A DNA stretch of 64,000 nucleotides from Clostridia bacterium (lineage in GTDB: Bacteria > Bacillota > Clostridia > Oscillospirales > CAG-272): assembly GCA_900769475.1 (NCBI GenBank), contig CAAGGQ010000110.1, positions 1,173 through 65,172 of the forward strand, written 5' to 3'. The position numbers and the translations under genes were made by a program. Of this stretch, positions 43,312 to 64,000 are shown in pieces (within the stretch, counting starts at the first letter, position 1; each line of letters starts with the position of its first letter). The notes beneath the pieces are model-generated. The model had not been told where the DNA came from. It worked only from the letters and a program-made list of their open reading frames with translations, and did not search any database.

Positions 43312-43345
43312 CACGCCCCCATCTTACCGTAAAGGAGAATCGTTT

Positions 43346-44018: not shown

Positions 44019-44071
44019 AAAACTCCTTCGCCGCTTTTTCTTTTGACCATATAGGCGCAAAAGAAAAAGCT
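44019..44071. repeat. repeat family C copy 2
   Basis: AAAACTCCTTCGCCGCTTTTTCTTTTGACCATATAGGCGCAAAAGAAAAAGCT is near-identical to 29278-29329. Confidence 0.65.
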
Positions 44072-44131
44072 TGGCCAAAACGTTCACTGCGTGGAAAATC
44101 TTTGTTTTATCCACTATTTGCAAAATACATC

Positions 44132-44160
44132 TTGATTTTTTCTCTGCTTTTTGCTATAAT
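44132..44160 (+). promoter_or_regulatory. promoter for metY-metA (TTGATT-17-TGcTATAAT)
   Basis: TTGATT at 44132-44137 and TATAAT at 44155-44160 with an upstream TG. Confidence 0.65.
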
Positions 44161-44223
44161 AAAAAAGTTAACATTATTTTTAAGCGATGCGATGTTTTGA
44201 AACCGCACCCAAGGAGGTTCATC

Positions 44224-45507: not shown

Positions 45508-45525
45508 CACAGGAGAATTATCAAC

Positions 45526-46515: not shown

Positions 46516-46531
46516 AATGCCAATTTCCAAA

Positions 46532-46790
46532 GGCTATGACGAAGACGGCCGAAAAAGATCGTTTCCAGAGAACCGACGGTTGGTGCGAGTCGGTAACGGG
46601 ATTTTTCAAAGGCCCATCCCTTCCGAGCCGGAAGCCCGAAAGACTGCGAGTAGGCGCTCCCCGTGATTGCTGCGTAAATGCATAAGGATTGTTGGATCCT
46701 GAGTGACGGCGTCTGCCGTAATTTGAGTGGTACCGCGAGTGTTGATTCACCCGTCTCAAAGAAAATCTTTGAGACGGGTATTTTTATTTT
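46532..46790 (+). promoter_or_regulatory. T-box riboswitch leader 1; positional specifier AUC (Ile)
   Basis: The Stem I base has a K-turn (GGC-UAU-GA...GA-GCC), an AGAGA bulge and a GGUUGGUGCGAG distal loop. The T-box sequence AATTTGAGTGGTACCGCG is at about 46720-46737. Terminator CCCGTCTCAAAG..CTTTGAGACGGG plus a T-run is at 46749-46790. The codon at -4..-2 before the base helix is ATC (46616-46618). Confidence 0.8.
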
Positions 46791-46810
46791 CCAAGAGGAG
46801 GAAACAAACC

Positions 46811-49148: not shown

Positions 49149-49164
49149 ACACATATTTTAAAAT

Positions 49165-49436
49165 AGCTTTGACGAAGAGTGATACGGGAGCGTGCCCTGC
49201 AGAGAGATGACGGTTGGTGCAAGCTCATCAAAAGCATTCCCCGTGTTTGTAGCTTCTGAGCTGAGAGGAAGAACGCCTATGGCAAGTAGAACCTCTCCGT
49301 GATTGCTGCGTAAAGGCATACGGATTGTACTGATCCTGAGTGGCGGCGTCCTGCCGCAATTTGAGTGGTACCGCGGGTCAACCTGAATTATCAGGCGCTC
49401 GTCTCAAAGTCACATGCTTTGGGGCGAGCGCTTTTT
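49165..49436 (+). promoter_or_regulatory. T-box riboswitch leader 2; positional specifier GUA (Val)
   Basis: K-turn base (AGC-UUU-GA...GA-GCU), AGAGAG bulge and GGUUGGUGCAAG distal loop. The specifier-loop 3' side is GUUUGUAG with GTA at 49249-49251 followed by a purine. T-box AATTTGAGTGGTACCGCG is at about 49358-49376. Terminator GCGCTCGTCTCAAAG..CTTTGGGGCGAGCGC plus TTTTTT is at 49395-49436. Confidence 0.82.
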
Positions 49437-49458: not shown

Positions 49459-51750
49459 ATGGAACAGATCACAGGTCTTGATTACAAAATTCAAGAAATG
49501 GCGCGACGCATTCGGGAATTGCGCGACATCGAGGGCTTTACCCCCGAGGAGATGGCGCAAAAGACCAACGTTTCGGTAGCCGAATACCTGGATTGCGAAA
49601 ACGGCAGAAGCGATTTGAACTTTGCCTTTATCTACCGCTGCGCCATGGCGCTCAAGGTCAACGTGACCGATATCATCGAGGGCTACAGCCCCAAGCTCCG
49701 CTCCTACACCGTTACCCGCAGCGGCAGCGGCCAGGAGATCGCCAAGGCTCACGGAATGACCTACTACAATATGGCCTACGACTTTAAAAACCGTATTGCC
49801 GAGCCTCTGTTCGTTAAGATCGATTACAACGAGAACAGCGCCCATAAGGACATCGAGCTCACCACCCACACGGGTCAGGAGTGTGACATCGTGATCGACG
49901 GTCAGCTCATGGTGCAGATCGGCGAGCACCGGGAGGTGCTGGGTCCCGGGGACAGCATTTATTACAACAGTGAAACGCCCCACGGCATGATCGCCACGGG
50001 CGGTCGGGATTGCACCTTCTACGCCATCGTTCTCAATCCCTCGGGCGAGCCCATTGCCGAGCTCATGCCCACCCAAGCGGTTACCAACGTCAAGGCTGTG
50101 GCCAAGAAGGACGAGAAGGATCGCATCTGGCACAACTACATCGACGTGGTGGAGAGCGAGACCGGACATCCCACCTCCATCACCTTCAAGAACACCGAGC
50201 ACTTTAACTTCGCCTTTGACCTGGTGGACGCCCTGGCCGATCGGGAACCCGAAAAACTGGCCATGCTCCACATTGCCAAGGACAAGACCGAACGCCGCTT
50301 CACCTTCAAGGATATGAAGCGGGAATCCAACCGCTGTGCCAACTACTTTAAGGCCATTGGCATCAAGCGGGGAGATCGGGTCATGCTTATCCTCAAGCGG
50401 CACTACCAGTTCTGGTTCGCCATGCTGGGTCTGCACAAGCTGGGCGCCATCGCCATTCCCGCGGTCAACCAGCTTCAGGAGCACGATCTGGAATACCGCT
50501 TCCAATCCGCCGGAGTTTCGGCCATCGTTTGCACCGCCGACGATGACGTGGCGCATCAGGTGGATCTGGCGGCACGGACCTGCCCCGGTCTCACCAATAA
50601 GATCCTGGTAAACGGCACGCGGGAGGGCTGGAGATGCTTTGACGAGGAATACACCATGTACAGCACCCATTACAACCGCCCTGCGGACGCTCCCGGCGGC
50701 GAGGATCTGATGCTGATGTATTTCACCTCGGGCACCTCAGGCTATCCCAAGATCGCGGCACACAACTACAAATACGTGCTGGGCCACTTCCACACCGCCA
50801 AGTACTGGCACACCGTGGATCCCGACGGCCTGCACTTTACCATTTCGGATACCGGCTGGGCCAAGGCCATGTGGGGCAAGCTCTACGGCCAATGGCTCTG
50901 CGAGGCAGCCACCTTTGTTTACGACTTTGACCGATTTGATGCCGCCGACATCCTTCCAATGTTCGCAAAGCATCACATCACCACCTTCTGCGCACCTCCC
51001 ACCATGCTCCGCATGATGGTAAAGCAGGATATTTCCAAGTACGACCTCTCCTCGGTCCAGCACATGACCACCGCAGGCGAGGCACTGAACCCCGAGGTCT
51101 ACCGTCAATTTGAAAAGCTGACGGGTCTGCAGATCCACGAGGGCTTTGGACAAAGCGAGAGCACCATGATCATTGGTAACCTGGTGGGTGCCCCCCACAA
51201 GATTGGCTCCATGGGCAAGCCGGCTCCCACCTACGACGTTTCCCTGGTGGATGCCGACGGCAATCCCGTCAAGGCCAGCGAGGTGGGTGAGATCGTGGTC
51301 AACATCAAGAACGGGATCCCCTGCGGTCTTGCCGTTGGCTACTATGGTGACGAAGAAAAGACCGCCGAAACCTGGAAGGACGGCCTCTACCACACCGGCG
51401 ACACCGCTTGGCGTGACGAGGACGGCTACTTCTGGTACGTGGGCCGCGTAGACGACGTGATCAAGTCCTCGGGCTACCGCATCGGTCCCTTTGAGATCGA
51501 GAGCGTGATCATGGAGCTTCCTTACGTGCTGGAGTGCGGCGTTTCGGCCGTGCCCGACGAGGTAAGAGGCCAGATCGTAAAGGCCAGCATCGTGCTGGTC
51601 GATGGCACCGAGCCCTCCGAGGATCTGAAGAAGGAAATTCAAACCTACGTCAAAGAAAAGACCGCGCCCTACAAGTACCCCCGTATCGTGGTCTTCCGCG
51701 AGAGCCTTCCCAAAACGGCCAGCGGCAAGATCCAGCGGAACAAGCTGTAA
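49459..51750 (+). CDS. fusion protein: XRE-HTH + cupin N-terminal module / AMP-forming acyl-CoA synthetase (paralog of 46811..49078)
   Basis: ATG at 49459 follows AAAAGGAG. Same architecture and the same ligase motifs (YFTSGTSGYPK, EGFGQSE, YHTGD, GRVDDVIKSSGYRIGPFEIES, SGKIQRNKL). The ligase domain is clearly paralogous to the upstream gene. Confidence 0.88.
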   Translation: MEQITGLDYKIQEMARRIRELRDIEGFTPEEMAQKTNVSVAEYLDCENGRSDLNFAFIYRCAMALKVNVTDIIEGYSPKLRSYTVTRSGSGQEIAKAHGMTYYNMAYDFKNRIAEPLFVKIDYNENSAHKDIELTTHTGQECDIVIDGQLMVQIGEHREVLGPGDSIYYNSETPHGMIATGGRDCTFYAIVLNPSGEPIAELMPTQAVTNVKAVAKKDEKDRIWHNYIDVVESETGHPTSITFKNTEHFNFAFDLVDALADREPEKLAMLHIAKDKTERRFTFKDMKRESNRCANYFKAIGIKRGDRVMLILKRHYQFWFAMLGLHKLGAIAIPAVNQLQEHDLEYRFQSAGVSAIVCTADDDVAHQVDLAARTCPGLTNKILVNGTREGWRCFDEEYTMYSTHYNRPADAPGGEDLMLMYFTSGTSGYPKIAAHNYKYVLGHFHTAKYWHTVDPDGLHFTISDTGWAKAMWGKLYGQWLCEAATFVYDFDRFDAADILPMFAKHHITTFCAPPTMLRMMVKQDISKYDLSSVQHMTTAGEALNPEVYRQFEKLTGLQIHEGFGQSESTMIIGNLVGAPHKIGSMGKPAPTYDVSLVDADGNPVKASEVGEIVVNIKNGIPCGLAVGYYGDEEKTAETWKDGLYHTGDTAWRDEDGYFWYVGRVDDVIKSSGYRIGPFEIESVIMELPYVLECGVSAVPDEVRGQIVKASIVLVDGTEPSEDLKKEIQTYVKEKTAPYKYPRIVVFRESLPKTASGKIQRNKL

Positions 51751-51762: not shown

Positions 51763-52428
51763 ATGAATACAAGCAAGCGCATTACCCTTCTCTGCGGTCA
51801 CTACGGCAGCGGAAAGACCAACGTGGCGGTCAATCTCGCCCTGCGGGAACGAACCCTCTACGAAAAGGTTGCGGTGGCCGATTTGGACATCGTAAACCCC
51901 TATTTCCGTACTAAGGACAGCAGCGCGGAGTTTGAGGCGGCAGGCATTCGCCTGATCTGCTCGGACTACGCCAACACCAACGTGGACATCCCCGCTCTCC
52001 CCCCGGATCTCTACGCCATTACCGACGACAAGAGCATTCGCGTGCTCATCGACGTGGGCGGCGATGATCGGGGTGCCCTTGCCCTGGGACGTCTGGCTCC
52101 CTCCATTTTGGAGGAGGACAGCTATGAGATGCTCATGGTCATCAACGGCTACCGTCCCCTGACCCGGGACGCTGCCTCCACCCTGGAGGTATTGCAGGAG
52201 ATCGAGGCCGCCTGCGGAATCCCATTCACGGGCCTGGTCAACAACTCCAACCTGGGAAACGACACCACCGCCGATGACGTGCTCGCCTCTTTGGCCTACG
52301 CCGAGGAGGTCTCCCGCATCACGGGGCTTCCCGTGGTCATGACCGCCTTCCACGAGGATCTGCTCCCCGCGCTTGGGGATAAGGTTCCTCATCCCTTCCC
52401 TTTGGCACTGCAAAAGAAAATCATATAA
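51763..52428 (+). CDS. P-loop NTPase (MinD/ParA/CooC-like SIMIBI class), unknown role
   Basis: Deviant Walker A LLCGHYGSGKTN and Walker B-like VLIDVGGDD. RBS AAAGGAG. 12-nt gap after the ligase gene with no terminator. Confidence 0.7.
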   Translation: MNTSKRITLLCGHYGSGKTNVAVNLALRERTLYEKVAVADLDIVNPYFRTKDSSAEFEAAGIRLICSDYANTNVDIPALPPDLYAITDDKSIRVLIDVGGDDRGALALGRLAPSILEEDSYEMLMVINGYRPLTRDAASTLEVLQEIEAACGIPFTGLVNNSNLGNDTTADDVLASLAYAEEVSRITGLPVVMTAFHEDLLPALGDKVPHPFPLALQKKII

Positions 52429-52473: not shown

Positions 52474-52680
52474 ATGGCAAAATTAACCTTTAAGACCGAC
52501 AACTGCAAGGGTTGCGGCCTGTGCGTGGATGCCTGCCCGAAGAAGATCCTTCGCCTGGCCTCCAACAAGATCAACAAAAAAGGACATCATCCGGTAGAAA
52601 TGACAGATGAATCGGCTTGCATTGGCTGTGCCTTCTGCGCCACCATGTGCCCCGATTGTATTATTAAGGTAGAGAGGTGA
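52474..52680 (+). CDS. 2-oxoacid:ferredoxin oxidoreductase delta subunit (2x[4Fe-4S] ferredoxin)
   Basis: 68 aa with CKGCGLCVDACP and CIGCAFCATMCP cluster motifs. Confidence 0.9.
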   Translation: MAKLTFKTDNCKGCGLCVDACPKKILRLASNKINKKGHHPVEMTDESACIGCAFCATMCPDCIIKVER

Positions 52681-52685
52681 TCAAC

Positions 52686-53741
52686 ATGGCAGAAAAAGTA
52701 TTGATGAAGGGCAACGAGGCCATTGCCGAGGCCGCCATCCTTGCGGGATGCCGCCACTACTTTGGTTACCCCATTACCCCCCAAACCGAAATTGCCGCCT
52801 ATATGGCAAAGAAAATGCCCAAGATCGGCGGTACCTTCCTCCAGGCCGAGAGTGAGATCGCGGCCATCAACATGGTCTATGGCGTGGCCTCCACGGGTCT
52901 GCGCGTTATGACTTCCTCCTCCTCTCCCGGAATCTCCCTGAAAAGCGAAGGCCTTTCCTATCTGGCCGGTGCTGATCTGCCCTCTTTGGTTGTAAACGTA
53001 CAGCGCGGCGGCCCGGGTCTGGGCGGTATTCAGCCCAGCCAGTCCGACTACTTCCAGGCCACTCGCGCGGCAGGACACGGCGACTTCCACATGATCGTTC
53101 TGGCTCCCGCCTCGGTGCAGGAGATGGCAGAGCTGACCGTGAAGGGCTTTGAGCTGGCCGACACCTACCGCATGACCTCTATGATCCTGGCCGACGGTAC
53201 CATGGGTCAGATGATGGAGCCCGTGGAGCTGAACTTTGACGTGAAGCCCATGCCCGAAAAGCCCTGGGCCACCACCGGCACCAAGCTGGAGCGCAAGCAC
53301 AACATCGTCAACTCCCTCTCCCTGGTTCCCGAGGAGCTGGAGCAGCTCAACTTTGCCCGCTTTGAGAGATATCGTCAGATCGAAGAAAACGAGCCCATGT
53401 GGGAAGAGTACATGATGGAGGACGCCGAGATCTGCATTGCCGCCTTTGGCATTGCCTCCCGCGTTTCCAAGAACGCCATCAACGAGGCCCGCAAGCAGGG
53501 CATTAAGGTGGGCCTGATCCGTCCCATCACCCTTTGGCCCTTCCCCAAAAAGGCATTCCAAAAGGCCGCTGAGCAGGTGAAGGCATTCATCTCCGTGGAG
53601 CTTTCCATGGGTCAGATGATCGACGACGTCCGCCTGGCCAGCGAATGTAAGGTACCCGTTACTCTGTGCAACCGTGCGGGCGGTATGATTCCCTCCCCCG
53701 AGCAGGTACTGGCAGAAATTAAAAAGGTTGCAGGAAAGTGA
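52686..53741 (+). CDS. 2-oxoacid:ferredoxin oxidoreductase alpha subunit (VorB/KorA-like)
   Basis: KGNEAIAEAAILAGCRHYFGYPITPQTEI N-terminus is typical of OFOR alpha subunits. ATG at 52686 follows GAGAGGTGA. Confidence 0.88.
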   Translation: MAEKVLMKGNEAIAEAAILAGCRHYFGYPITPQTEIAAYMAKKMPKIGGTFLQAESEIAAINMVYGVASTGLRVMTSSSSPGISLKSEGLSYLAGADLPSLVVNVQRGGPGLGGIQPSQSDYFQATRAAGHGDFHMIVLAPASVQEMAELTVKGFELADTYRMTSMILADGTMGQMMEPVELNFDVKPMPEKPWATTGTKLERKHNIVNSLSLVPEELEQLNFARFERYRQIEENEPMWEEYMMEDAEICIAAFGIASRVSKNAINEARKQGIKVGLIRPITLWPFPKKAFQKAAEQVKAFISVELSMGQMIDDVRLASECKVPVTLCNRAGGMIPSPEQVLAEIKKVAGK

Positions 53742-53752
53742 GGCATGGAACC

Positions 53753-54508
53753 ATGGTAGTATTTGATAAACCCCACGCATTGGCAGATATGCCCTTGCAT
53801 TATTGCCCCGGTTGCACCCACGGCATCATCCACCGCCTGGTGGCAGAGGTCATGGACGAGCTGGGAATTGAAGGAAAGACCATTGGCATCGCCCCCGTGG
53901 GATGCTCGGTAATGGCCTACAATTATTTCAACTGTGACATGATCGAGGCGGCCCACGGACGGGCTCCCGCCATTGCCACCGGCGTAAAGCGCGCCAATCC
54001 CGAGAACATCGTGTTCACCTATCAGGGTGACGGCGACCTGGCCTCCATTGGTATGGCAGAAACGGTGCACTCCGCCGCCAGAAACGAGAACATCACCGTG
54101 ATCTTCGTAAACAATGCCATTTACGGTATGACCGGCGGTCAGATGGCTCCCACCTCCCTCCCCGGACAGATCACCCAGACCTCTCCCTACGGCCGTGACG
54201 TAAATCATTGCGGCTATCCCATCCGCGTTTGCGAAATGCTCTCTCAGCTGGAAAGCCCTCAGTACCTGGAGCGCGTGACTGTGAACAGTGTAAAGAACAT
54301 CAAGAACGCCAAGAAGGCGATCAAGAAGGCCTTCCAGAACCAGATCGACGGCAAGGGCTTCTCCCTGGTCGAGGTTCTCTCCACCTGCCCCACCAACTGG
54401 GGTATGACACCTCAGGCGGCGCTGAAGTGGATCGATGATAAGATGATCCCCTACTATCCTCTGGGCGTTTACAAGGACAAATCCGCACAACAGGAGGAAA
54501 GCAAATGA
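53753..54508 (+). CDS. 2-oxoacid:ferredoxin oxidoreductase beta subunit (TPP-binding)
   Basis: HYCPGCTHGI Cys motif and the GDGD...N TPP-binding region (YQGDGDLASIG...NNAIYGMTGGQ). A start at 53738 (GTG) is the alternative. Confidence 0.88.
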   Translation: MVVFDKPHALADMPLHYCPGCTHGIIHRLVAEVMDELGIEGKTIGIAPVGCSVMAYNYFNCDMIEAAHGRAPAIATGVKRANPENIVFTYQGDGDLASIGMAETVHSAARNENITVIFVNNAIYGMTGGQMAPTSLPGQITQTSPYGRDVNHCGYPIRVCEMLSQLESPQYLERVTVNSVKNIKNAKKAIKKAFQNQIDGKGFSLVEVLSTCPTNWGMTPQAALKWIDDKMIPYYPLGVYKDKSAQQEESK

Positions 54509-55038
54509 GCACCCAAAACTATCTCCTCTCGGGCTTTGGCGGACAGGGCATCCTGTTCTCCGGCAAATTCCTGGCCTACAAGGGCCTGACCGCGGGTAAG
54601 CAGGTGAGCTGGCTCCCCTCCTACGGTCCCGAAATGCGCGGCGGTACCGCCAGCTGCAGCGTGATCGTGAGCGACGAGCCCGTGGGCTCTCCCATCGTAT
54701 CCAATCCCGACATTCTGGTGGCCATGAACCTGCCCTCCTTTGATAAGTTTGAGGCCAGCGTGGTGCCCGGCGGCATGATCTTTGCCGATTCCACCCTCAT
54801 TGAGCGGAAATCTGAGCGCACCGACGTAACCGTGCACTACATTCCCGCAACCCAGCTGGCCAGCGACAACGGCTTTCCCACTCTGGCCAACATGATCATT
54901 GTTGGTAAGATCCTCAAGGAGCTGGGCGAATTCGACGAGGACGCCCTGCGCGTAGCCCTTGGCAAGGTCATCTCCGCCAAGCGTGCCGACATGCTGGAAA
55001 CCAACCTCAAGGCCATGAAGATCGGCGCGGAATATTAA
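54505..55038 (+). CDS. 2-oxoacid:ferredoxin oxidoreductase gamma subunit
   Basis: LLSGFGGQGILFSGKFLA N-terminus and SYGPEMRGGTA motif. ATGA overlap with the beta subunit. Confidence 0.88.
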   Translation: MSTQNYLLSGFGGQGILFSGKFLAYKGLTAGKQVSWLPSYGPEMRGGTASCSVIVSDEPVGSPIVSNPDILVAMNLPSFDKFEASVVPGGMIFADSTLIERKSERTDVTVHYIPATQLASDNGFPTLANMIIVGKILKELGEFDEDALRVALGKVISAKRADMLETNLKAMKIGAEY

Positions 55039-55276: not shown

Positions 55277-56338
55277 ATGGATATCAAGATCATCAAAACA
55301 ACCACTCCCAAGGAAAAGCCCGATGCCTCTACGCTGGGCTTTGGTAAGATCTTTACCGATCATATGTTCATCATGGATTATGAAGCAGGAAAGGGCTGGC
55401 ACGATGCTCGCATCGTTCCCTTTGAGAACATCTCCCTTCACCCCGCCTCCACCGTTCTGCACTACGGCTCCGAGATCTTTGAGGGTCTGAAGGCCTACCG
55501 CCGTGCCGACGGCAAGGTGCAGCTCTTCCGTCCCATGGAGAACGTTCGCCGTCTGAATTCCTCGGCCGACCGTCTCTGTCTGCCCCTGCTCCCCGAGGAT
55601 ATGGCTATGGAAGCCCTCACCGCCTTCGTGCGCACCGAAGAGGCCTGGACCCCCTCTGCTCCCGGCACCTCCCTCTATCTCCGTCCCTTCCTGTTTGGAA
55701 ATGACGAGAGCCTGGGCGTGCACACGGTGCAAAACGCCAAGTTTGTAATCATCGCCTCCCCCGTGGGAAGCTACTACAAGGAAGGCATCAACCCTGTAAA
55801 GATCATGATCGAGGACGAGGACGTGCGTGCCGTAAAGGGTGGCACCGGCTACACCAAGTGCGGCGGTAACTACGCCGCCAGCAACCGTGCCGGCGAGCGC
55901 GCCGCACAAAAGGGCTACTCTCAGGTGCTCTGGCTGGACGGTGTACACAGAAAGTACATTGAGGAAGTAGGCGCCATGAACGTCATGTTCAAGATCGCGG
56001 GCGAGATCGTGACTCCCATGCTTTCGGGCTCAATTCTTCCCGGCATTACCAGAAAATCCTGCATTGAGATCCTTCAGAAAGAGGGCTACAAGGTCAGCGA
56101 GCGCCTGCTCAGCATCGACGAGCTGGAACAGGCTATGGCTGACGGCACCCTGGAAGAAGCCTGGGGCACCGGCACCGCAGCCGTTGTTTCTCCCATTGGT
56201 GAGCTTTGCTACAAGGATCAAAAGTACACCGTTGGCGGCGGCAAGATCGGAGAGGTTACCCAGCACCTGTACGATACCCTCACCGGAATTCAGTGGGGCA
56301 AAACCGAGGACACCTTTGGTTGGACCATGCCTCTTTGA
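55277..56338 (+). CDS. ilvE: branched-chain amino acid aminotransferase
   Basis: Class IV aminotransferase with FEGLKAYR, GTGYTKCGGNYAAS and ILPGITR motifs. 353 aa. Confidence 0.93.
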   Translation: MDIKIIKTTTPKEKPDASTLGFGKIFTDHMFIMDYEAGKGWHDARIVPFENISLHPASTVLHYGSEIFEGLKAYRRADGKVQLFRPMENVRRLNSSADRLCLPLLPEDMAMEALTAFVRTEEAWTPSAPGTSLYLRPFLFGNDESLGVHTVQNAKFVIIASPVGSYYKEGINPVKIMIEDEDVRAVKGGTGYTKCGGNYAASNRAGERAAQKGYSQVLWLDGVHRKYIEEVGAMNVMFKIAGEIVTPMLSGSILPGITRKSCIEILQKEGYKVSERLLSIDELEQAMADGTLEEAWGTGTAAVVSPIGELCYKDQKYTVGGGKIGEVTQHLYDTLTGIQWGKTEDTFGWTMPL

Positions 56339-56389: not shown

Positions 56390-57952
56390 ATGAAAAATCT
56401 TTTTCGTATTCTGATTGCGTTTTTGGCAATCCCGATTTTGTTGGCGTCCTGTCAAGCCACTCCCAAGGAGATGGACGAGACATCCGCTATTACAACGGGG
56501 ACCACCGCAACGGAGGAAGCACCTACTGCTACAACGGGATCAACCTCAACGGAGAGCAATCCCGGTACGCCGAGTGTGGAGCCGCCCGCAGAGATACGCG
56601 TAGCAACCTTCAACGTACAATCCTCTCTTTCCACTACCGAAAAGGGCGATTTGACGGCGGCATCGCAGGTTCGTTTGGATGCTCTGATCAAGGAGATCCT
56701 TTCCTATGATTTAGACGTTATCAGCCTGCAAGAGGATGCCGAAAAAATAAATGAATTGCTTTCCGCGGAGCTGGTGTCGGCAGGCTACGCCTGTTATGCC
56801 GATCCTGTTCCGGGCTCCGGTGAGGATCAGCGTTGCGGCATCTACTACCGCGCGGAGCGCTTTGAGCTGTTGGAGTCGGGAGTGAAAGACCTTCCCCACG
56901 GAACCTTTAAGGGAACCATTGGCACCCATAAAAACCTGAATTCTTCTCACCATTTCTTTCTCCGTTACGTCATTCTTCGTGATAAGGAGACCGGCAAATC
57001 CTTTTTAAGCGCCAACACCCACCTCATTTCTCGCAACCAGAACACCCTTGGTATTTTCCAAACCGCGACCCGTATTCAGGCAAGGATCCATCAAATTGTC
57101 GGATATGAGGAGATGATTGACGCCTTGCGCGTGGGCGAGTACGTAGGCATTCCCGTTTGCGTGACCGGAGATATGAACACGGTGGCATCCGCATCCTTTG
57201 AATTTCACGATACCCTTGAAAACGCCAAGGCGTTTGGCGTTCCGGAGCTTACCGTAGGCGCAACCGGTGTTCTAAAGGTTCCTTATCACTGTTTGGATAA
57301 TGATACCAATTCCGCCGTGGAGCTTCCTTACGAGATTACCAAGGTCACAGGAACGGACGTATATTTTAAGATTCAGTCCCCCACTTACTCCCGTTTGACC
57401 GCCAACCTGAAGGATAGCTTTGTCGTTGCCAAAAAGACAAACGCCACCGATACCAATTACGGCTCGTGGAACAGCTACCTTGGCAGCAAGGCAGGAAAAA
57501 ACAAATCCACCGAGCGTTTGGACTACATTTTGACCGACAACGGTTTTACCGTGGAGGAGTATCAAATTGGTGACGGCTATGCCACCTATCTGCGAGACAA
57601 CAACGGGGTGGACGAGCTGAAGCTCTTTGAGGAGGATCTTCTTGCCGCACTTTCGGGTACTTTGACCTCTGCCAACGCAAAATTCGCCTACGACTTTGTT
57701 AAGAACGGTTCGTCTTATACCGCTACCAAGCTTCCGGATTGGTTGACCGATAACGGCGGTATTTATGCTTATTGCTACACCAATGATACCGGAGAGGTGA
57801 ATACCGTGCCGCGAACCTTCTTCAACTATCTTTCCTATTGCGCTTACTACACCCTCACGCCGGGGAAAAACGTAAAGGGAACCGCAGACCGCATTGAGGT
57901 TTGTACCTCGGATCATCTGTGCAGCATTGCCGTGCTTTCCTTTGCGGAATAA
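56390..57952 (+). CDS. secreted lipoprotein of the endonuclease/exonuclease/phosphatase (EEP) family
   Basis: MKNLFRILIAFLAIPILLASC is a signal peptide with a lipobox. A Thr-rich linker follows. RVATFNVQ and DVISLQED are EEP motifs. Confidence 0.75.
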   Translation: MKNLFRILIAFLAIPILLASCQATPKEMDETSAITTGTTATEEAPTATTGSTSTESNPGTPSVEPPAEIRVATFNVQSSLSTTEKGDLTAASQVRLDALIKEILSYDLDVISLQEDAEKINELLSAELVSAGYACYADPVPGSGEDQRCGIYYRAERFELLESGVKDLPHGTFKGTIGTHKNLNSSHHFFLRYVILRDKETGKSFLSANTHLISRNQNTLGIFQTATRIQARIHQIVGYEEMIDALRVGEYVGIPVCVTGDMNTVASASFEFHDTLENAKAFGVPELTVGATGVLKVPYHCLDNDTNSAVELPYEITKVTGTDVYFKIQSPTYSRLTANLKDSFVVAKKTNATDTNYGSWNSYLGSKAGKNKSTERLDYILTDNGFTVEEYQIGDGYATYLRDNNGVDELKLFEEDLLAALSGTLTSANAKFAYDFVKNGSSYTATKLPDWLTDNGGIYAYCYTNDTGEVNTVPRTFFNYLSYCAYYTLTPGKNVKGTADRIEVCTSDHLCSIAVLSFAE

Positions 57953-58048: not shown

Positions 58049-58077
58049 TTGACAAACCAAAAAAATCATGTTATAAT
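58049..58077 (+). promoter_or_regulatory. promoter of T-box leader 3 (TTGACA-17-TATAAT)
   Basis: TTGACA at 58049-58054 and TATAAT at 58072-58077. Confidence 0.65.
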
Positions 58078-58097
58078 ACACCATATTTTATTTTAAA

Positions 58098-58365
58098 TGC
58101 ATTGATGGAATTATTCTCTATCCCAAGTTCACCCCAGAGAGTCGGCGGAGGGTGCGAGCCGACGTGGACCGACAGAGAAGTCTCGTTCCGGAGCAGAGTT
58201 GCCCAACCCATATGGCAGTAAGCGACTACGGCGTGCCCCGTTACCAAGGCAAAGGGCTTGTCAGAGCCCCAATGAGTTGACCGTAGTTTTACGGTAAACA
58301 GGGTGGTACCGCGAAGATTGTTCGTCCCTGAAGCTGATGTATCAGCTTCAGGGACTGTTTGTTTT
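58098..58365 (+). promoter_or_regulatory. T-box riboswitch leader 3; specifier CUC (Leu)
   Basis: K-turn base (UGC-AUU-GA...GA-GCA), AGAGAG bulge and GGAGGGUGCGAG distal loop. The specifier-loop 3' side is AGUCUCG with CTC at 58182-58184 followed by G. T-box AAACAGGGTGGTACCGCG is at about 58297-58313. Terminator GTCCCTGAAGCTGAT..ATCAGCTTCAGGGAC plus TGTTTGTTTT is at 58324-58365. Confidence 0.85.
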
Positions 58366-58416
58366 CTATACCCCCGCGCTCTGTACGCCTCGCAAACAGA
58401 AAGGAAAACGATCCAA

Positions 58417-59802
58417 ATGAAACACATTCAAATTGCAGACACCACACTTTGCAGAGAGGGCAAGGCCTTTAGCTTTAAGGAAAAGCTGGAGATTGCCCGT
58501 CAGCTGGAAAAGCTGAACGTAGATGTGATCGAGCTCCCCGAGATCCATACGCCTAAGACCGACATCCTCTTTGTGCGTACCGCCTCCTCCTTTGTAAAGC
58601 AAAGCACTCTCTCGGTCGCTGCCGGAAAGACCCCGGAAAGCATTTCCAACGCCTTGGCCGCGTTAGGCAATACCGCCAATCCTTGCGTGCGCATTGAGCT
58701 GCCCGTATCCCCCGTGGGCATGGAATACATCTGTCACAAAAAGCCGCCCAAGATGCTGGAGTGGATCACGCAGGCTGTCCACACCGCCAAGAAAGGCTGT
58801 TCCAACGTGGAATTTTGCGCCGTGGATGCCACCCGCGCCGAAAAGGACTTTTTGAAGGAGGCCCTTCTGGCCGCACAAGTGGCAGGTGCCACCTCCATTT
58901 CGATCTGCGATAGCGCCGCCGAAATGCTCCCCGACGATTTTGCCACCTTCGTGGAGGAGATCCTCTCTTGGGTGGATTTGCCCGTGGGTGTTCGTTGCTC
59001 CAACCTCAACGGCCTCTCGGTGGCCGCCTCCATTCTTTCGGTGCGTCACGGAGCCTCCTGCGTAAAGACCAACGTAGACGGTGCCGACGCTCCGCTGGAG
59101 GCCTTTTGCACCATGCTCCGCAACTGCGGCAACAGCTATGGCTTCACCTCCTCTCTGCGTTACACCGAGCTCTACCGCATTGTAAAACAGATCCTGCGCA
59201 TTACCGATGCGGCCTCCAAGAGCGACAAGATTCTTGCTGTGCAGGGCAGCGCCAACTCGGACATCCACCTGGATCGCAACGATTCCCAGGATGCAGTCAT
59301 TGCCGCCGTGGCCAAGCTGGGCTATGATCTCTCCGAGGAGGATCAAAAGAACGTGTACGAGGAATTCCTCCGCGTGGCCGAAAAGAAGAAGGTGGGCTCC
59401 AAGGAGCTGGACGCCATCATTGCCACCGCCGCCCTCCAAGTCCCCTCCACCTATCGCTTGGAGAACTATGTGATCAACACAGGCAGTGTTCTCAGCGCCA
59501 GCGCCCAGATCATAATGACCCGCGGCGAGGAGACCGTGCAGGGTATTTGCGTAGGAGACGGCCCCATTGACGCCGCCTTCCGCGCCATGGAGCAGATCCT
59601 GGGCCGCCATTACGAGTTGGATGATTTTCAAATCCAGGCTGTGACCGAGGGTAAGGAAGCCATGGGCTCGGCAGTGGTCAAGCTTCGTCGGGACGGCAAG
59701 CTCTACTCGGGCAACGGTCTTTCCACCGACATCATCGGTGCCAGCATCCGCGCCTATCTCAACGCCGTGAACAAAATCATCTATGAGGAGGAACAGGCAT
59801 GA
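58417..59802 (+). CDS. 2-isopropylmalate-synthase-like protein with degenerate catalytic motifs and an intact C-terminal LeuA regulatory/dimerisation domain
   Basis: The HMGL-like barrel is recognisable (IQIADTTL..KEKLEIARQLEKLNVDVIE). However, DTTLRDGEQ is replaced by DTTLCREGK and HxHND by RCSNLN, and GIGERAGN is missing. The C-terminal YELDDFQIQAVTEGKEAMGSAVVKLRRDGKLYSGNGLSTDIIGASIRAYLNAVNK is a well-conserved LeuA_dimer domain. Confidence 0.75.
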   Translation: MKHIQIADTTLCREGKAFSFKEKLEIARQLEKLNVDVIELPEIHTPKTDILFVRTASSFVKQSTLSVAAGKTPESISNALAALGNTANPCVRIELPVSPVGMEYICHKKPPKMLEWITQAVHTAKKGCSNVEFCAVDATRAEKDFLKEALLAAQVAGATSISICDSAAEMLPDDFATFVEEILSWVDLPVGVRCSNLNGLSVAASILSVRHGASCVKTNVDGADAPLEAFCTMLRNCGNSYGFTSSLRYTELYRIVKQILRITDAASKSDKILAVQGSANSDIHLDRNDSQDAVIAAVAKLGYDLSEEDQKNVYEEFLRVAEKKKVGSKELDAIIATAALQVPSTYRLENYVINTGSVLSASAQIIMTRGEETVQGICVGDGPIDAAFRAMEQILGRHYELDDFQIQAVTEGKEAMGSAVVKLRRDGKLYSGNGLSTDIIGASIRAYLNAVNKIIYEEEQA

Positions 59803-62324
59803 AGCTTTCCTTTTCTACCAAGGGCTGGCATCACAGCTCCTTTGACGAATTTTGCGAGATTGCCAATGACCTCCACTTTGAGGGTATTGAGCTTCACAAT
59901 ATCTATAATCCTATTTTTACCGACAAGGACGGTGCCTTTCACAACTACACCGCTGCGGTGACCCGCCGTCACCTCTTTGAAAAACACTTGCAGATCCCCT
60001 GCATCGATACCGTTGGTGACATTGCCGAGGCCGAAACCGAGGATCTGACGGTGAAGGAGCTGGAGCGTTGCTTTGAGATCGCCTCCAATCTTCACATTCC
60101 CCACATCCGCCTGCGCGCCAACGCTCGCGAGAACGCCGAGGAAGGCGTGGAGCAGGTGGCCTCCCTCATTGGCAAGATCCTGCCCCTGGCCGAGGAGAAG
60201 AACATCACCCTTCTGATCGAAACCTCGGGGCTCTTTAGCAATACCGCTACTCTGCGGGATCTGCTGGTACGCTTTGCCTGCGATCATCTGGGTGCCCTTT
60301 GGAATCTCTCCGCCGCCTACTTTGAGTGTGGGGAGGATGCCGAAACCGTGATCAAGAACCTGGGGGCTTACGTCCGTCACGTGCATTTTCATGATGCCAA
60401 GAAAACGTTCGACGGCGTAGAATACTGCCTGGCCGGCGAGGGCGAGATGCCCGTAAAAGATATGATGCTGGCGCTACGTTCGGTGAACTACGACGGCTAT
60501 ATCTCCCTGGTTTGGGATCCCTCCTGGTGCGAGGAGCTGGACGACATGGAGATCATCTTCTCCCAGTTTGTGGGCTACATGAAGCAATTCAGTAACCCCT
60601 CCCGCAACGAAGCTACCCTGTACAGCAACAAGACCCACACGGGCAAGTTCGTATGGAAAAAGGACCTTCTCATCGACCACACCTTCTCTCAGGTGCTGGA
60701 TCGTATGGTCGCCGAATTCCCCGACCAGTACGCCTTCAAATACACCACCCTGGACTACACCCGCACCTACAGCCAATTCCGGGATGACGTGGACGAATTC
60801 GCTCGCGTGCTCATTGACCTGGGAGTCAAGGCCGGCACTCACGTGGCGGTCTGGGCCTCCAACGTGCCCCAATGGTACATTGCCTTTTGGGCCACCGTAA
60901 AGCTGGGCGCGGTGCTGGTGACCGTAAACACCTCCTACAAGATCCACGAAGCCGAATACCTCTTTAAGCAATCGGATACCCACACCATCATTATGACCGA
61001 GGGCTCCAAGGATTGCAGCTACGGCGAGATCGTTGCCGAGCTCTGCCCCGAGCTGGCCACCACCAAGCCCGGAAAGCCTCTCCATGCCAAGCGTCTGCCC
61101 TTCTTGCGCAACGTCATCACCGTTGGCTTCCGTCAAAAGGGATGTCTGGAATGGAACGATGCCCTGGAGCGCGCCTCCAATGTCCCCGTAGAAGAGGTTT
61201 ATCGCATGGCTGCCGCCGTGAACAAGGACGACGTTTGCAACATGCAGTACACCTCAGGCACCACCGGCTTCCCCAAGGGCGTTATGCTCACCCACTACAA
61301 CATCGTCAACAACGGCAAGTGCATTGGCGACCGCATGGATCTTTCCACCGCCGACCGCATGATGATCCAGGTTCCCATGTTCCATTGCTTTGGCATGGTA
61401 CTGGCCATGACCGCCGCCATGACCCACGGAGGAACCCTGCTTCCCCTGCCCTATTTCTCTCCCAAGCCGGCCCTGGCCTGCATCCACAACGAGCACATCA
61501 CCGCCTTCCACGGCGTGCCCACCATGTTCATTGCCCTTTTGGAGCATCCTGACTTTGAAAAGACCGATTTCTCCTACATGCGTACCGGTATTATGGCGGG
61601 AAGCCCCTGCCCCATCTCGGCCATGCGCCAGGTGGTGGAGAAAATGAACATGCGGGAAATCACCATTGTGTACGGCCAGACCGAAGCCTCTCCCGGATGC
61701 ACCATGAGCTCCACCGACGATCCCATTGAGGTTCGCGTGGGCACCGTTGGTAGACCTCTGCCCGAGATCGAGTGCAAGATCGTTAATCCCGAAACCGGAG
61801 AAGAATGCCCCGATGAGGTGACGGGCGAATTCGTGGCCCGTGGCTACAACCTGATGAAGGGCTACTACAAGATGCCCAAAGCCACCGCCGCCGCCATTGA
61901 CGCCGAGGGCTGGCTCCACACGGGCGACCTTGCCTGCCGCACTCCCGAAGGAAACTTCCGTATTACGGGACGCCTCAAGGATATGATCATCCGCGGCGGC
62001 GAGAACATCTATCCCAAGGAAATCGAAGAATTCATCTACACCCATCCTAAGGTGAGCGACGTACAGGTCATCGGCGTGCCCGACGAGCAGTACGGCGAAG
62101 AGATCATGGCCTGCATCATCCTCAAAGAGGGCGAAACCATGACCGCTGACGAAATGAAGGCCTATATCGGTGCCAATATGGCCCGCCATAAAGTCCCCCG
62201 CTATATCGACTTTGTGGACGCCTTCCCCATGAACGCCGCCGGTAAGATCCTCAAGTATAAAATGCGCGAGGACGCCGTGGAAAAACTCGGCCTGCACAAA
62301 GCCAACAATATTGTAACTGCGTAA
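59799..62324 (+). CDS. fusion protein: xylose-isomerase-like TIM barrel (AP_endonuc_2 type) / AMP-dependent acyl-CoA ligase (FadD-like)
   Basis: ATGA overlap with the LeuA-like gene. The N-terminal ~265 aa (FEGIELHN..., LLIETSG, VRHVHFHDAK, DGYISLVWDP) is a sugar-phosphate isomerase/epimerase-type barrel. The C-terminal ~560 aa has MQYTSGTTGFPKGVMLTH, YGQTEASPG, LHTGDL, GRLKDMIIRGGENIYPKEIE and AAGKILKYKMR. Confidence 0.85.
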   Translation: MKLSFSTKGWHHSSFDEFCEIANDLHFEGIELHNIYNPIFTDKDGAFHNYTAAVTRRHLFEKHLQIPCIDTVGDIAEAETEDLTVKELERCFEIASNLHIPHIRLRANARENAEEGVEQVASLIGKILPLAEEKNITLLIETSGLFSNTATLRDLLVRFACDHLGALWNLSAAYFECGEDAETVIKNLGAYVRHVHFHDAKKTFDGVEYCLAGEGEMPVKDMMLALRSVNYDGYISLVWDPSWCEELDDMEIIFSQFVGYMKQFSNPSRNEATLYSNKTHTGKFVWKKDLLIDHTFSQVLDRMVAEFPDQYAFKYTTLDYTRTYSQFRDDVDEFARVLIDLGVKAGTHVAVWASNVPQWYIAFWATVKLGAVLVTVNTSYKIHEAEYLFKQSDTHTIIMTEGSKDCSYGEIVAELCPELATTKPGKPLHAKRLPFLRNVITVGFRQKGCLEWNDALERASNVPVEEVYRMAAAVNKDDVCNMQYTSGTTGFPKGVMLTHYNIVNNGKCIGDRMDLSTADRMMIQVPMFHCFGMVLAMTAAMTHGGTLLPLPYFSPKPALACIHNEHITAFHGVPTMFIALLEHPDFEKTDFSYMRTGIMAGSPCPISAMRQVVEKMNMREITIVYGQTEASPGCTMSSTDDPIEVRVGTVGRPLPEIECKIVNPETGEECPDEVTGEFVARGYNLMKGYYKMPKATAAAIDAEGWLHTGDLACRTPEGNFRITGRLKDMIIRGGENIYPKEIEEFIYTHPKVSDVQVIGVPDEQYGEEIMACIILKEGETMTADEMKAYIGANMARHKVPRYIDFVDAFPMNAAGKILKYKMREDAVEKLGLHKANNIVTA

Positions 62325-62333
62325 TTAAGACCT

Positions 62334-62399
62334 CGGGGGAAGGAGAACACTTCTTTCAAGAAGTGTTCTCCTTCCCCCGAACCCCTACCCTCTTTCCGG
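62334..62399 (+). repeat. repeat family D copy 2 (GGGGGAAGG hairpin + ACCCCTACCCT tail)
   Basis: CGGGGGAAGGAGAACACTTC-tttcaa-GAAGTGTTCTCCTTCCCCCGAACCCCTACCCTCTTTCCGG. It shows the same pattern as the minus strand of 19650-19703. Confidence 0.6.
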
Positions 62400-62466
62400 A
62401 ACTTCTCATAAAAAAGAAATAGCGTTGCATTGAAAAACTGTTTCAAAGCAACGCTATTTTGTTGTT

Positions 62467-63657
62467 TTAGTTGACTAAATCATCTGCGTATTTTCGAAGC
62501 TGATGGACATCCTCCATAATTCGCTCACTATTTGTGTTTGCTTTTTCTAACAAAGCCGCTTGCATATTGGATGCAGATATAATTGAGTTTTTAACGCCTT
62601 GCACTTTTCCGCCCAACTCTTCCACTCCGGAATATAAAATTCTTTGCGAATTTTCGAGCATATCCAATCGGAAAGAAATTTGGCTTGTAGAGTGCTGTAT
62701 AGTATTACAAATCCGCGTACCAATCTCCTTCATTACAGAGATTAATTCGCCATGTCGTACCAATTCATCCGTTTGCCTTAGTGCATCTTGAATAGATAAA
62801 GCGCGCGATGTTTCAAACATATAGATTATTACATCCAGGTATTTCCAGTCTTGAACATTCAAGAACCCATTAAAATGTTCAATAAGGGTTTGGAAAATAT
62901 ATTTTCCTTCATTAACTAAATTGTTTATTTGTTCATCGTAATAACTGTCAGCCTTCAAATTCAATATTTCTCTTTCTGCATCTTCAACAATTGAGGGAAA
63001 AGAACTTAATTTATCCTTGCATCGTGTATAATCAATTGTTTTTTTAGTCAAAACCGATATTTTTTTGTTTTCCTCATTTATTAATTCATCTTTTTCTCTT
63101 TGAATTTTTTCCAAATCACCATTAGAAATGTTTTTTGTACTTAGGACAACAAATAACAGTAATTCAACTGCTACCAGCGACCACCAAAGCCACATCAATG
63201 GTTCAGGACATATAGAACGAAATGATATTGTAATTACGCCTATTAAAACCACAAACAAAAGGAAATATCGCAACAAAGAGTTTCTCTTTAGAAGAGCAGA
63301 TTTTTCCCTTTCAATATTATGAATAGTTATTTTGGCTCTCGATATCGCTTCATTGTTTTTTTCATCGCTATAATTCTCAACTACTGTTTTAGAATTTTGA
63401 TATTTCTTTTTTAATGTTTTTAATTTGGCTTTTTTTTCGTTTTTTATTTTGTTATTTTCTTTTTTTTCTTTTATTATCAATTCAACTTGATCATGTTTTC
63501 TGGATATTTCCGAAATCCCAGCACGCAAGGTATATAAATTATCAAGAATCCGCCCTTTTATATTTCCTCCCGAAAAGTCATTTTCAACACATTCACTTCC
63601 GCAAATAAGGCATTTCTCAAACTCCGACTGTGTTCCACATTTCGAGCAGTAATACAT
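62467..63657 (-). CDS. hypothetical zinc-ribbon / coiled-coil / 2-TM membrane protein; strongly AT-rich (likely foreign)
   Basis: ATG at 63657 follows AAAGGAGAG. N-terminus MYYCSKCGTQSEFEKCLICGSEC is a CxxC...CxxC ribbon. A Lys/Glu/Asn-rich coiled coil follows, then two TM helices (LLRYFLLFVVLIGVITISF and LMWLWWSLVAVELLLFVVLS) and a ~200-aa C-terminal domain. Terminator hairpin AATAGCGTTGC..GCAACGCTATT lies downstream. Confidence 0.7.
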   Translation of the reverse strand: MYYCSKCGTQSEFEKCLICGSECVENDFSGGNIKGRILDNLYTLRAGISEISRKHDQVELIIKEKKENNKIKNEKKAKLKTLKKKYQNSKTVVENYSDEKNNEAISRAKITIHNIEREKSALLKRNSLLRYFLLFVVLIGVITISFRSICPEPLMWLWWSLVAVELLLFVVLSTKNISNGDLEKIQREKDELINEENKKISVLTKKTIDYTRCKDKLSSFPSIVEDAEREILNLKADSYYDEQINNLVNEGKYIFQTLIEHFNGFLNVQDWKYLDVIIYMFETSRALSIQDALRQTDELVRHGELISVMKEIGTRICNTIQHSTSQISFRLDMLENSQRILYSGVEELGGKVQGVKNSIISASNMQAALLEKANTNSERIMEDVHQLRKYADDLVN

Positions 63658-63961
63658 AATTCTCTCCTTTATAAAATAAAAAATACGCCAACTGAAATCA
63701 GCGCATAAAAGCCACACATACTTCAAGCGTTGTTGCACTATTCGGTTTTATTTGACACATTTATTATACCACAGTTGTTCTTTTATGTCAATAATTACTC
63801 GTTTTTTTCTATTCTCAAAAAGAAACCTCGCAACTTCTCTCCAAAAAACAGGGCTGCACGCAAATTGCGTACAGCCCTTTATACGGACGCCGGAAGCATG
63901 AACCCGGCGGTGGTTTCATCATAGCAGTATGTATGATAAATTCCGTGTTTCGGAAAAAGAA

Positions 63962-64000
63962 TTACTTCGCGTAGTCTACAGCGCGCGTCTCTCGGATCAG
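63962..64000 (-). CDS. 3' end of an unidentified gene continuing beyond the window
   Basis: The reverse strand reads ...LIRETRAVDYAK* with stop at 63964-63962. A hairpin AGGGCTGCACGCAA-ATTGCGTACAGCCCT (about 63851-63879) lies downstream. Too short to identify. Confidence 0.35.
   Translation of the reverse strand: MIRETRAVDYAK

Follow-up and report, generated by a model that had tools for sequence, protein, structure and literature searches.

What could be the function of a paralog of 2-isopropylmalate synthase (LeuA) that has lost its catalytic residues and is encoded, under leucine control, together with an acyl-CoA ligase? The question is raised by a stretch of 64,000 nucleotides from a Clostridia bacterium (Oscillospirales, CAG-272; GenBank assembly GCA_900769475.1, contig CAAGGQ010000110.1, positions 1,173 to 65,172 of the forward strand), hereafter the window, where the gene at 58417..59802 on the forward strand encodes a LeuA-like protein of 461 aa. 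A preliminary description, made from the sequence, had suggested that this protein might sense leucine and modulate the ligase encoded next to it. Following up this suggestion, we tentatively propose, by analogy, that the dead LeuA, itself without catalytic activity, serves a predicted isovalerate-CoA ligase as a regulatory subunit that senses leucine, with a logic like that of HisZ, an assignment that we consider plausible and almost, though not quite, probable. The evidence comes from the loss of the LeuA active site, the distribution of constraint along the protein, the specificity of the T-box leader, and the conserved gene pair.

Loss of the LeuA Active Site

As characterized by Pfam, NCBIfam, alignment, and AlphaFold2 (AF2) modeling followed by Foldseek comparison, the non-catalytic LeuA paralog consists of an HMGL-like degenerate TIM barrel (residues 1-255; Pfam HMGL-like PF00682 at 4-253, E=1.7e-27), a shortened linker (residues 256-325), and a LeuA_dimer regulatory domain (residues 326-461; Pfam PF08502 at 327-454, E=4.4e-30, model positions 3-130 of 131, 104.7 bits). 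The best NCBIfam LeuA model for the whole protein, NF002086, scores 274 bits with a cut-off of 532; TIGR00973 scores 231 bits with a cut-off of 599, and the protein is far under the curated cut-offs of the CimA and NifV models.

The catalytic positions were read from the alignment to E. coli LeuA (L009). DTTLRDGEQ of the E. coli enzyme corresponds to DTTLCREG-, so that the substrate arginine is replaced by cysteine and RD by CR; VHTHDDLG corresponds to VRCSNLNG, where HTH has become RCS and both metal-binding histidines are gone; NGIGERAGN corresponds to DG-----AD, with a 5-aa gap at GERAG; SCED corresponds to CAVD, with valine in place of the catalytic glutamate; and PDT corresponds to CDS. 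A loss additional to those reported before is a 29-aa deletion, which takes out the subdomain-I segment AHSSGIHQDG... carrying the equivalent of His379 of the M. tuberculosis enzyme (MtIPMS). In MtIPMS, R80A/K and E218A are among the activity-destroying substitutions (review PMC10464499), and the subdomain-I residues His379 and Tyr410 were implicated in both catalysis and allostery (PMC9860122).

The AF2 model of the protein (pLDDT 86.5, with disorder only at 266-281) has LeuA and methylthioalkylmalate (MAM) synthase as its top Foldseek matches, and the modeled barrel superimposes on that of Listeria LeuA (3ewb) with a root-mean-square deviation of 1.8 A and a TMt of 0.91. Retention of the metal ligands in a shifted register was considered and rejected, since the Pfam match, in which residues 4-253 correspond to model positions 2-254, concurs with the alignments to PDB entries and to the E. 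coli enzyme; the PDB alignments to 3rmj and 3ewb are in the same register as the E. coli one, with R and S at the two metal-histidine positions, and the barrels of 105 family representatives contain no conserved His/Asp set. Thus the claims of the preliminary description about the barrel withstand each of these comparisons: the catalytic motifs of the window protein are lost (DTTLCREGK, VRCSNLNG, no GERAGN), the 105 representatives lack the HxH pair and the GERAGN glutamate as well, the LeuA, CimA, and NifV models all score under their curated cut-offs, no displaced metal ligands were found, and the predicted structure is that of LeuA.

By all sequence criteria, the protein seems to have kept the LeuA fold and lost the LeuA chemistry. 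The loss also appears to be complete and ancient, because HxH, GERAGN, and subdomain I are absent as well in relatives whose barrel is only 36-40% identical. The invariant cysteines C12, C164, and C194 were considered as a new metal or Fe-S site, but this was rejected for the family at large: the first two are variable among its deeper members, and C194 is simply the cysteine inherited with the ancestral HCH motif.

A Large Family of Dead LeuA Paralogs

Hundreds of uncultured gut and rumen Clostridia encode members of this large family, which has so far gone unannotated. A word-indexed search returned more than 100 homologs of 457-462 aa with 63-78% identity from metagenome-assembled genomes of Clostridia, Ruminococcaceae, and Oscillospiraceae. 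Their source names, where given, are mostly "hypothetical protein," and the close homolog P0078 is called 2-isopropylmalate synthase in one public source. In GTDB, a relative is present in at least 540 species genomes; the best 80 of these matches are mostly from Acutalibacteraceae or "Ruminococcus sp." of ruminant and human guts.

A deep family set was obtained by an exhaustive HMMER search of the representatives of 50%-identity clusters, for which a motif table was then compiled. The dead clade accounts for 105 of the 111 full-length representatives (453-497 aa). None of the 105 has both metal histidines, the GERAGN glutamate and the subdomain-I histidine are absent in all of them, and the former active-site positions appear randomised over the clade. 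Genuine LeuA, with RDEQETHHDERNHH at 14 sites, turns up in this search only under ~204 bits. The orthologs of the window protein, 82 in number and 55-78% identical, all have an intact open reading frame (ORF). A pattern that recurs in all these orthologs and in the 105 representative clusters goes far beyond what chance would produce. In the literature searched, the coverage of which was incomplete, no description of a non-catalytic LeuA paralog was found.

Several proteins lie at the border of the family. The full-length LeuA paralogs P0374, P0378, and P0388 (503-516 aa) have the catalytic set replaced in part only (e.g., CDEQETRYDKRCAH), and may either be on the way from active LeuA to the dead clade or have degenerated independently. 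The protein P0360 (L093, 1287..2693; 34% identity) has kept the Arg-Asp pair and is devoid of HxH and GERAGN; it adjoins a tRNA gene and phage-like genes, which may represent a second context for dead LeuA paralogs.

Constraint on the Regulatory Domain

Selection acts unequally on the parts of the protein. Mean pairwise identity among the 82 orthologs is 0.565 in the barrel, 0.496 in the linker, and 0.754 in the regulatory domain; the distant members L090-L092, with their 36-40% identical barrels, are 65-74% identical to the window protein in the regulatory domain; and, over the 105 representatives, 32 of 133 positions are at least 90% conserved in the regulatory domain against 16 of 255 in the barrel. 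The same asymmetry is seen with NF002086, which scores the regulatory domain of the window protein at 117.0 bits and that of E. coli LeuA at 112.0 bits, whereas the respective barrels score 128.3 and 407.8 bits. The isolated regulatory domain matches only LeuA models in NCBIfam.

The two most invariant motifs are G380-D-G-P-I-D385, which aligns with 531-GNGPLA-536 of M. tuberculosis LeuA (MtLeuA) and GNGPVDA of E. coli, and G-N-G-(I/L)-S-T-D-I-I-G-A-S, which aligns with GVGIAPSITTAS of MtLeuA and GLATDIVESS of E. coli. In MtLeuA, leucine is bound at the dimer interface of the regulatory domains, where the N-termini of two helices flank its carboxylate (PMC11057210). A PF08502 domain on its own can work as an autonomous amino-acid sensor, and the ligand of such domains is leucine in LeuA and isoleucine in CimA (PMC13381585). 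A single-sequence phmmer search of the regulatory domain against PDB gave nothing useful, and a profile of the domain gave only weak alignments, to 3f6g, 1sr9, and 3fig. Overall, the LeuA-type regulatory domain is intact and is the most constrained part of the protein, and leucine is its most natural candidate ligand, as we infer from its sequence and its T-box.

Within the barrel, a patch of nine residues, D8, T10, S98, E103, Y104, K109, D137, R140, and D165, is at least 90% conserved throughout the 105 representatives. It may serve in docking or in the binding of a new ligand.

Leucine T-Box and Coupling to the Ligase Gene

A sigma-70-type promoter was recognized by sequence reading at 58049..58077 of the forward strand (-35 TTGACA at 58049-58054, a 17-nt spacer, -10 TATAAT at 58072-58077), right after the terminator of the upstream gene of the endonuclease/exonuclease/phosphatase (EEP) family. 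It is followed on the same strand by a leucine T-box leader with its terminator (58093..58367, RF00230 match and sequence reading). The RF00230 match at 58093..58332 spans the full model (1-219) and scores 114.5 bits with a gathering score of 93; the specifier loop is GAAG-u-CUC-G, where CUC (Leu) is the specifier with a purine next to it, the T-box bulge is UGGU, and the intrinsic terminator hairpin and U-tract occupy 58326-58367. The LeuA-like ORF begins with MKHIQIADTTLCREGK and has the ribosome-binding site AAAGGA 5' of its start. Its stop overlaps the start of the ligase gene in ATGA at 59799-59802, with GAGGAGGA immediately 5', and a G+C-rich hairpin at 62334..62380 (forward strand, by sequence reading) marks the end of the two-gene operon.

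The T-box core motif is found upstream of the LeuA-like gene in 73 of the 79 orthologous loci with enough upstream DNA. The specifier in the 73 aligned leaders is CUC (67 leaders) or CUG (five), one being unresolved, and it is CUG or CUC also in the leaders of the distant members L090, L091, L095, and L096. The specifier changes are synonymous, both here (CUC/CUG) and in the valine leaders described below (GUA/GUC), which argues that it is the amino-acid identity of the T-box that is conserved.

The partner gene (59799..62324, forward strand, assigned by Pfam and NCBIfam) encodes a fusion of a TIM barrel and an AMP-forming ligase of 841 aa (TIM::ligase). In a tblastn map of 83 non-redundant loci, it comes directly after the LeuA-like gene wherever downstream DNA exists, at a distance of a few nucleotides or with an overlap in most loci, and LeuA-like representatives of only 41%, 37%, and 35% identity still precede a TIM or TIM::ligase gene. 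The reverse search with the TIM domain yielded 247 homologs, each annotated as TIM alone or TIM with AMP-binding; the homologs returned were truncated proteins only, and are informative for gene context and not for full architectures. All three distant TIM homologs inspected (42-46% identity), one of them binned as Synergistaceae, have a LeuA-like gene directly upstream.

Thus three further claims of the preliminary description hold. The C-terminal allosteric/dimerisation domain of LeuA is kept, leucine T-box control is confirmed by the Rfam match and by the synonymous specifiers of the orthologs, and the ATGA coupling to the ligase fusion belongs to a pairing present in all loci with downstream DNA. 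The suggestion of a leucine sensor, which these comparisons support in part, becomes more coherent as well, because the ligase is one of three T-box-controlled ligases encoded beside an oxidoreductase and an aminotransferase of branched-chain metabolism.

The Partner Protein and the Branched-Chain Cluster

In the partner protein, a xylose-isomerase-like TIM barrel (residues 1-270, with AP_endonuc_2, PF01261, at 20-238) precedes an AMP-forming acyl-CoA ligase (residues 296-841) made of AMP-binding and AMP-binding_C domains (PF00501, 314.5 bits, and PF13193, 67.3 bits; synthetase 301-816). Its best NCBIfam match, NF009233 (PRK12583), scores 684 bits with a cut-off of 832 and represents a subfamily different from that of the two other ligases of the cluster, ligA and ligB. 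Pairwise identity among the partner orthologs is 0.83 in the ligase domain and 0.60 in the TIM domain. As a barrel of the xylose-isomerase-like kind, the TIM domain is generic: it was modeled by AF2 with a pLDDT of 90.9, and the best Foldseek matches are AsbF, Art22, and SCO6571 with a TM of ~0.75. The canonical E-D-H-E metal tetrad reads E141-N169-H196-V238 in the window protein. Of 73 family members, 26 have kept E-D-H-E and 22, the window protein among them, have E-N-H-V, and the replacement of E-D-H-E by E-N-H-V in this domain (59799..60610) is correlated across positions. The TIM domain of the partner may also be losing catalysis.

Upstream of the operon, all on the forward strand, lies a cluster of genes for branched-chain metabolism. 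It opens with an isoleucine T-box leader (specifier AUC; 46527..46795, RF00230 match at 46527..46761, 84 bits, E=5e-18) before ligA (46811..49078, 755 aa), and continues with a valine T-box leader (specifier GUA; 49160..49409, RF00230, 71.8 bits, E=7e-15) before ligB (49459..51750, 763 aa). Both these T-boxes are under the Rfam gathering score, though full-length, and were found by an E-value threshold. Each of ligA and ligB encodes, by Pfam and NCBIfam, HTH_3 and cupin_2 domains and an MbcS-like acyl-CoA synthetase. Then follow a CbiA/ParA-like P-loop protein of 221 aa (51763..52428, weak Pfam matches); a four-subunit 2-oxoisovalerate:ferredoxin oxidoreductase of the VorDABC type (VOR; 52474..55038, by NCBIfam and Pfam of orthologs), consisting of the delta ferredoxin (52474-52680), alpha (52677-53741), beta/thiamine pyrophosphate (53738-54508), and gamma (54505-55038) subunits; and a class IV branched-chain amino acid aminotransferase (BCAT; 55277..56338, PF01063, NF009897). 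VorB scores 542 bits with NF005507 (cut-off 399) and BCAT 478 bits with NF009897 (cut-off 307), whereas the best match of ligA, NF047394 MbcS, reaches 430 bits with a cut-off of 850; the best match of ligB is likewise MbcS.

About half of the related loci share with the window this cluster of ligases, P-loop protein, VOR, and BCAT. In assigning ligA and ligB across loci, N-terminal coverage was used, which avoids cross-matches of the third ligase. The specifier of the ligA leader is AUC in four of four aligned loci and also in L096; that of the ligB leader is GUA in 19 of 20 loci and GUC in one. No leu biosynthesis genes occur within the 64-kb window.

Isovalerate is the predicted substrate of the partner ligase on account of the leucine T-box, the VOR/BCAT context, and the isoleucine and valine T-boxes of the two MbcS-like paralogs. 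From the same sequence context, ligA is predicted to be a 2-methylbutyrate-CoA ligase and ligB an isobutyrate-CoA ligase. For MbcS of S. aureus, 2-methylbutyrate and isobutyrate are good substrates and isovalerate is a poor one (PMC10026030). On the simplest reading, the three starvation-induced ligases, for 2-methylbutyrate, isobutyrate, and isovalerate, would feed VOR and BCAT, converting branched-chain fatty acids into amino acids. Carboxylation of isovalerate, isobutyrate, and 2-methylbutyrate to leucine, valine, and isoleucine by rumen and gut anaerobes has been known since the 1960s, and the leucine branch is established rumen physiology (PMC7356843, which cites Allison 1966). In the literature searched, again with incomplete coverage, neither the activating enzymes of the carboxylation route and their regulation nor T-box-controlled branched-chain acid ligases were described.

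Several features of the cluster deserve mention on their own. It combines three amino-acid-specific T-boxes (Ile, Val, and Leu) within 16 kb, one per acyl-CoA ligase gene. The LeuA-like gene of most related loci has BCAT or vorG only a few hundred bases away. In ligA and ligB, a module resembling a transcription-factor sensor, XRE-type HTH_3 plus cupin_2, is fused to the enzyme; this module may be a sensor or autoregulator, and its role in the isoleucine and valine ligases may be analogous to that of the dead LeuA. The P-loop protein, similar to CbiA, ParA, and NUBPL, has no NCBIfam match. Wherever a related locus has the cluster, the gene of this protein immediately precedes that of the VOR ferredoxin subunit; the protein may be a maturation factor.

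A Putative Leucine-Sensing Subunit

In the proposed mechanism, the protein is a pseudoenzyme derived from 2-isopropylmalate synthase, the barrel of which would no longer bind metal or 2-oxoacid or perform the Claisen condensation. The leucine T-box would allow both proteins of the operon to be made only in the presence of uncharged tRNA-Leu, and translational coupling would keep dead LeuA and TIM::ligase in fixed proportion. The ligase would activate isovalerate to isovaleryl-CoA, VOR would reductively carboxylate it to 2-oxoisocaproate, and BCAT would transaminate the latter to leucine. Dead LeuA would dimerise via its regulatory domains, as LeuA does, and dock on the ligase, possibly at the degenerate TIM domain of the latter; free leucine, bound in the inter-subunit pocket of the dimer, would turn the ligase down (or the absence of leucine would turn it up). 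Labor would thus be divided, the T-box reading the charging of tRNA-Leu and dead LeuA reading free leucine. A LeuA paralog stripped of its chemistry would have kept the sensor and become a detachable subunit of an unrelated AMP-forming ligase.

End-product feedback in the de novo leucine route resides in the regulatory domain of LeuA. Feedback in the carboxylation route is to be expected at the activation of isovalerate, because this would be its committed, ATP-consuming step, and dead LeuA would place this step of salvage under the same feedback by the end product as LeuA does in de novo synthesis. That the large dead-LeuA family as a whole provides leucine feedback to the committed enzyme of the isovalerate-carboxylation route, in a two-tier control by tRNA charging and free amino acid, is a broader proposal, which we make with somewhat more reserve than that for the window protein.

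If this holds, it would be a clear case of the transfer of a regulatory domain from one committed enzyme to another by means of a dead paralog. The cluster provides candidate genes for all three acid-activation steps, each labeled by its own T-box specifier, and the requirements of fiber-degrading rumen bacteria for branched-chain volatile fatty acids would become easier to interpret. It would also correct the annotation of family members, which are called "hypothetical protein" or, mistakenly, "2-isopropylmalate synthase" and occur across hundreds of species, and the regulatory domain could possibly serve as a compact leucine-binding module for biosensor design.

Comparison with Known Systems

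The closest known counterparts of the dead paralog are LeuA proteins such as those of M. tuberculosis (1SR9/3FIG) and N. meningitidis (3RMJ), which it resembles in the score of the regulatory domain and in the pocket loops. It differs from them by the absence of the metal ligands, substrate arginine, catalytic glutamate, and GERAGN, by the deletion of the subdomain-I segment, by scores under all LeuA cut-offs, and by linkage to an acyl-CoA ligase gene instead of leuBCD.

The logic proposed here is that of HisZ, the regulatory subunit of short-form ATP phosphoribosyltransferase and a textbook case, which is an inactive paralog of histidyl-tRNA synthetase that binds histidine and mediates feedback on HisG (PMC10795190). 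In both cases an inactive paralog of an enzyme recognizing the amino acid of the pathway is encoded next to its catalytic partner, and for dead LeuA this adjacency was found in all loci with downstream DNA. HisZ binds the end product and relays the feedback (PMC10795190), which is only proposed for dead LeuA; the folds are unrelated, HisZ having that of a class II aminoacyl-tRNA synthetase, and the HisZ complex and its ligand binding are experimental, whereas here they are predicted. The dead paralog as a regulatory subunit is a known concept.

Branched-chain feedback by a separate subunit is also known from IlvH/IlvN, the small subunit of acetohydroxyacid synthase with an ACT-type valine sensor, and IlvH can act as an autonomous sensor (PMC13381585). 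In contrast to dead LeuA, these subunits have the ACT fold, are not dead enzyme paralogs, and regulate a thiamine diphosphate enzyme. Finally, S. aureus MbcS shares with the cluster the formation of a branched acyl-CoA by an AMP-forming synthetase, ligA and ligB being MbcS-like (PMC10026030), and in the rumen route the acyl-CoA is then reductively carboxylated and transaminated (PMC7356843), as predicted here. MbcS, however, feeds fatty-acid synthesis and has no sensor subunit, and the leucine-controlled ligase belongs to another subfamily (NF009233, PRK12583) and has a TIM-barrel N-domain.

Alternative Explanations

Several observations weigh against a leucine-sensing subunit. We infer the contact between dead LeuA and the ligase, and the identity of the ligand comes from the T-box alone, where another ligand would be conceivable as PF08502 ligands differ. 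The T-box by itself already provides leucine control, so that a second layer is not strictly needed, and in six of the 79 loci the T-box core motif is not directly upstream of the gene. P0360 stands alone, with no ligase gene after it on its contig. The conserved patch of the barrel is not required by a pure sensor, and two components of the system, the TIM domain of the ligase and the Amidohydro_2 protein encoded after the ligase in 56 of 61 loci (not in the window), have no place in the model. Lastly, in a mirror-tree comparison the distances of the barrel correlated with those of the partner's TIM domain at r=0.61 (partial r=0.51 when the ligase domain is controlled for), and with those of the ligase domain at a partial r of only 0.07, a weak hint at co-evolution of the two barrels in which the signal is confounded by rate differences.

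Alternatively, the protein could be an obligatory structural or activating subunit devoid of leucine control, which would scaffold or activate TIM::ligase or tether it to VOR for channeling of isovaleryl-CoA; the regulatory domain would then be conserved as a dimerisation and docking module and not for binding leucine. Strict synteny and translational coupling speak for such a role, the barrel and the TIM domain of the ligase co-vary in rate, the conserved barrel patch is surface-like, structures of DRE-TIM aldolases bound to a partner dehydrogenase (1nvm and 4jn6) are among the Foldseek matches, and HisZ, too, activates its partner (PMC10795190). However, the most invariant part of the protein is the pair of pocket loops at helix N-termini (GDGPID and STDI), which fits a ligand site more than a mere interface, and the score of the domain is that of a complete regulatory domain of LeuA. 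We regard a purely structural or activating role as unlikely.

A neofunctionalized barrel, binding or acting without metal on isovaleryl-CoA, isovaleryl-AMP, or 2-oxoisocaproate, for example, would give the same patch a different meaning; the TIM domain and the Amidohydro_2 protein would then be its partners in a reaction so far unrecognised. Indeed, the nine conserved residues of the patch are polar or aromatic, E103, Y104, and K109 among them are not LeuA residues, C12 is invariant in the close family, and three proteins of the TIM-barrel type are co-transcribed in 56 of 61 loci. At the same time, the former active-site positions are essentially randomised, the barrel is the fast-evolving part of the protein, C12 is not kept in deeper members, and the acetyl-CoA/subdomain-I segment is deleted, all of which makes a new activity distinctly improbable.

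The leucine-sensing subunit that we favor could also be right in its architecture and wrong in its ligand, if the sensor responded to 2-oxoisocaproate, isovalerate, isovaleryl-CoA, or isoleucine or valine. The variation of the PF08502 ligand between LeuA and CimA (PMC13381585) allows for this, and no residue-level rule of specificity is applicable; but the pocket loop resembles that of LeuA (G-x-G-P) and not that of CimA (GDGGYDA in 3f6g), the regulatory domain matches only LeuA models, and the T-box is specific for leucine. A ligand other than leucine therefore seems slightly more doubtful still than a new activity of the barrel. That the protein is still an active 2-isopropylmalate or citramalate synthase whose ligands have moved elsewhere, for which the LeuA fold and the name given to P0078 might speak, or else a decaying pseudogene, can practically be dismissed, since no conserved His/Asp set exists anywhere in the barrel, the protein is under every equivalog cut-off, and the ORFs of 82 orthologs are intact with a highly conserved C-terminal domain.

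Neighboring Genes

The Amidohydro_2 protein (PF04909), usually encoded by the third gene of the operon (L001, 11909..12715, and equivalents), has no NCBIfam match, and its nearest solved structure, 3irs, is uncharacterised; NCBIfam and PDB searches of this protein and of the ligase domain gave no functional clue. In the window, the G+C content falls abruptly to 35% past the operon terminator (62325..64000), and a convergent gene at 62467..63738 in this region encodes a protein of 423 aa with a GC3 of 0.30 and no significant family match. Since the Amidohydro_2 gene holds that place in 56 of 61 other loci, the region is likely an insertion or replacement.

Between BCAT and the leucine T-box, the EEP-family gene at 56390..57952, an insertion with a lower G+C content (0.505), encodes a 520-aa protein with a lipoprotein-like N-terminus. 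On its other side, the branched-chain cluster is preceded by an amino-acid-biosynthesis neighborhood (27055..46461). Apparent arginine genes there belong to the families of argC, argJ, argB, argD, and argF, and apparent methionine genes encode a Cys/Met pyridoxal phosphate enzyme and a homoserine O-acyltransferase. The apparent histidine genes of the same region include hisD, an aminotransferase gene, and an ORF of the tRNA-synt_His family at 33909..35021, which is probably HisZ.

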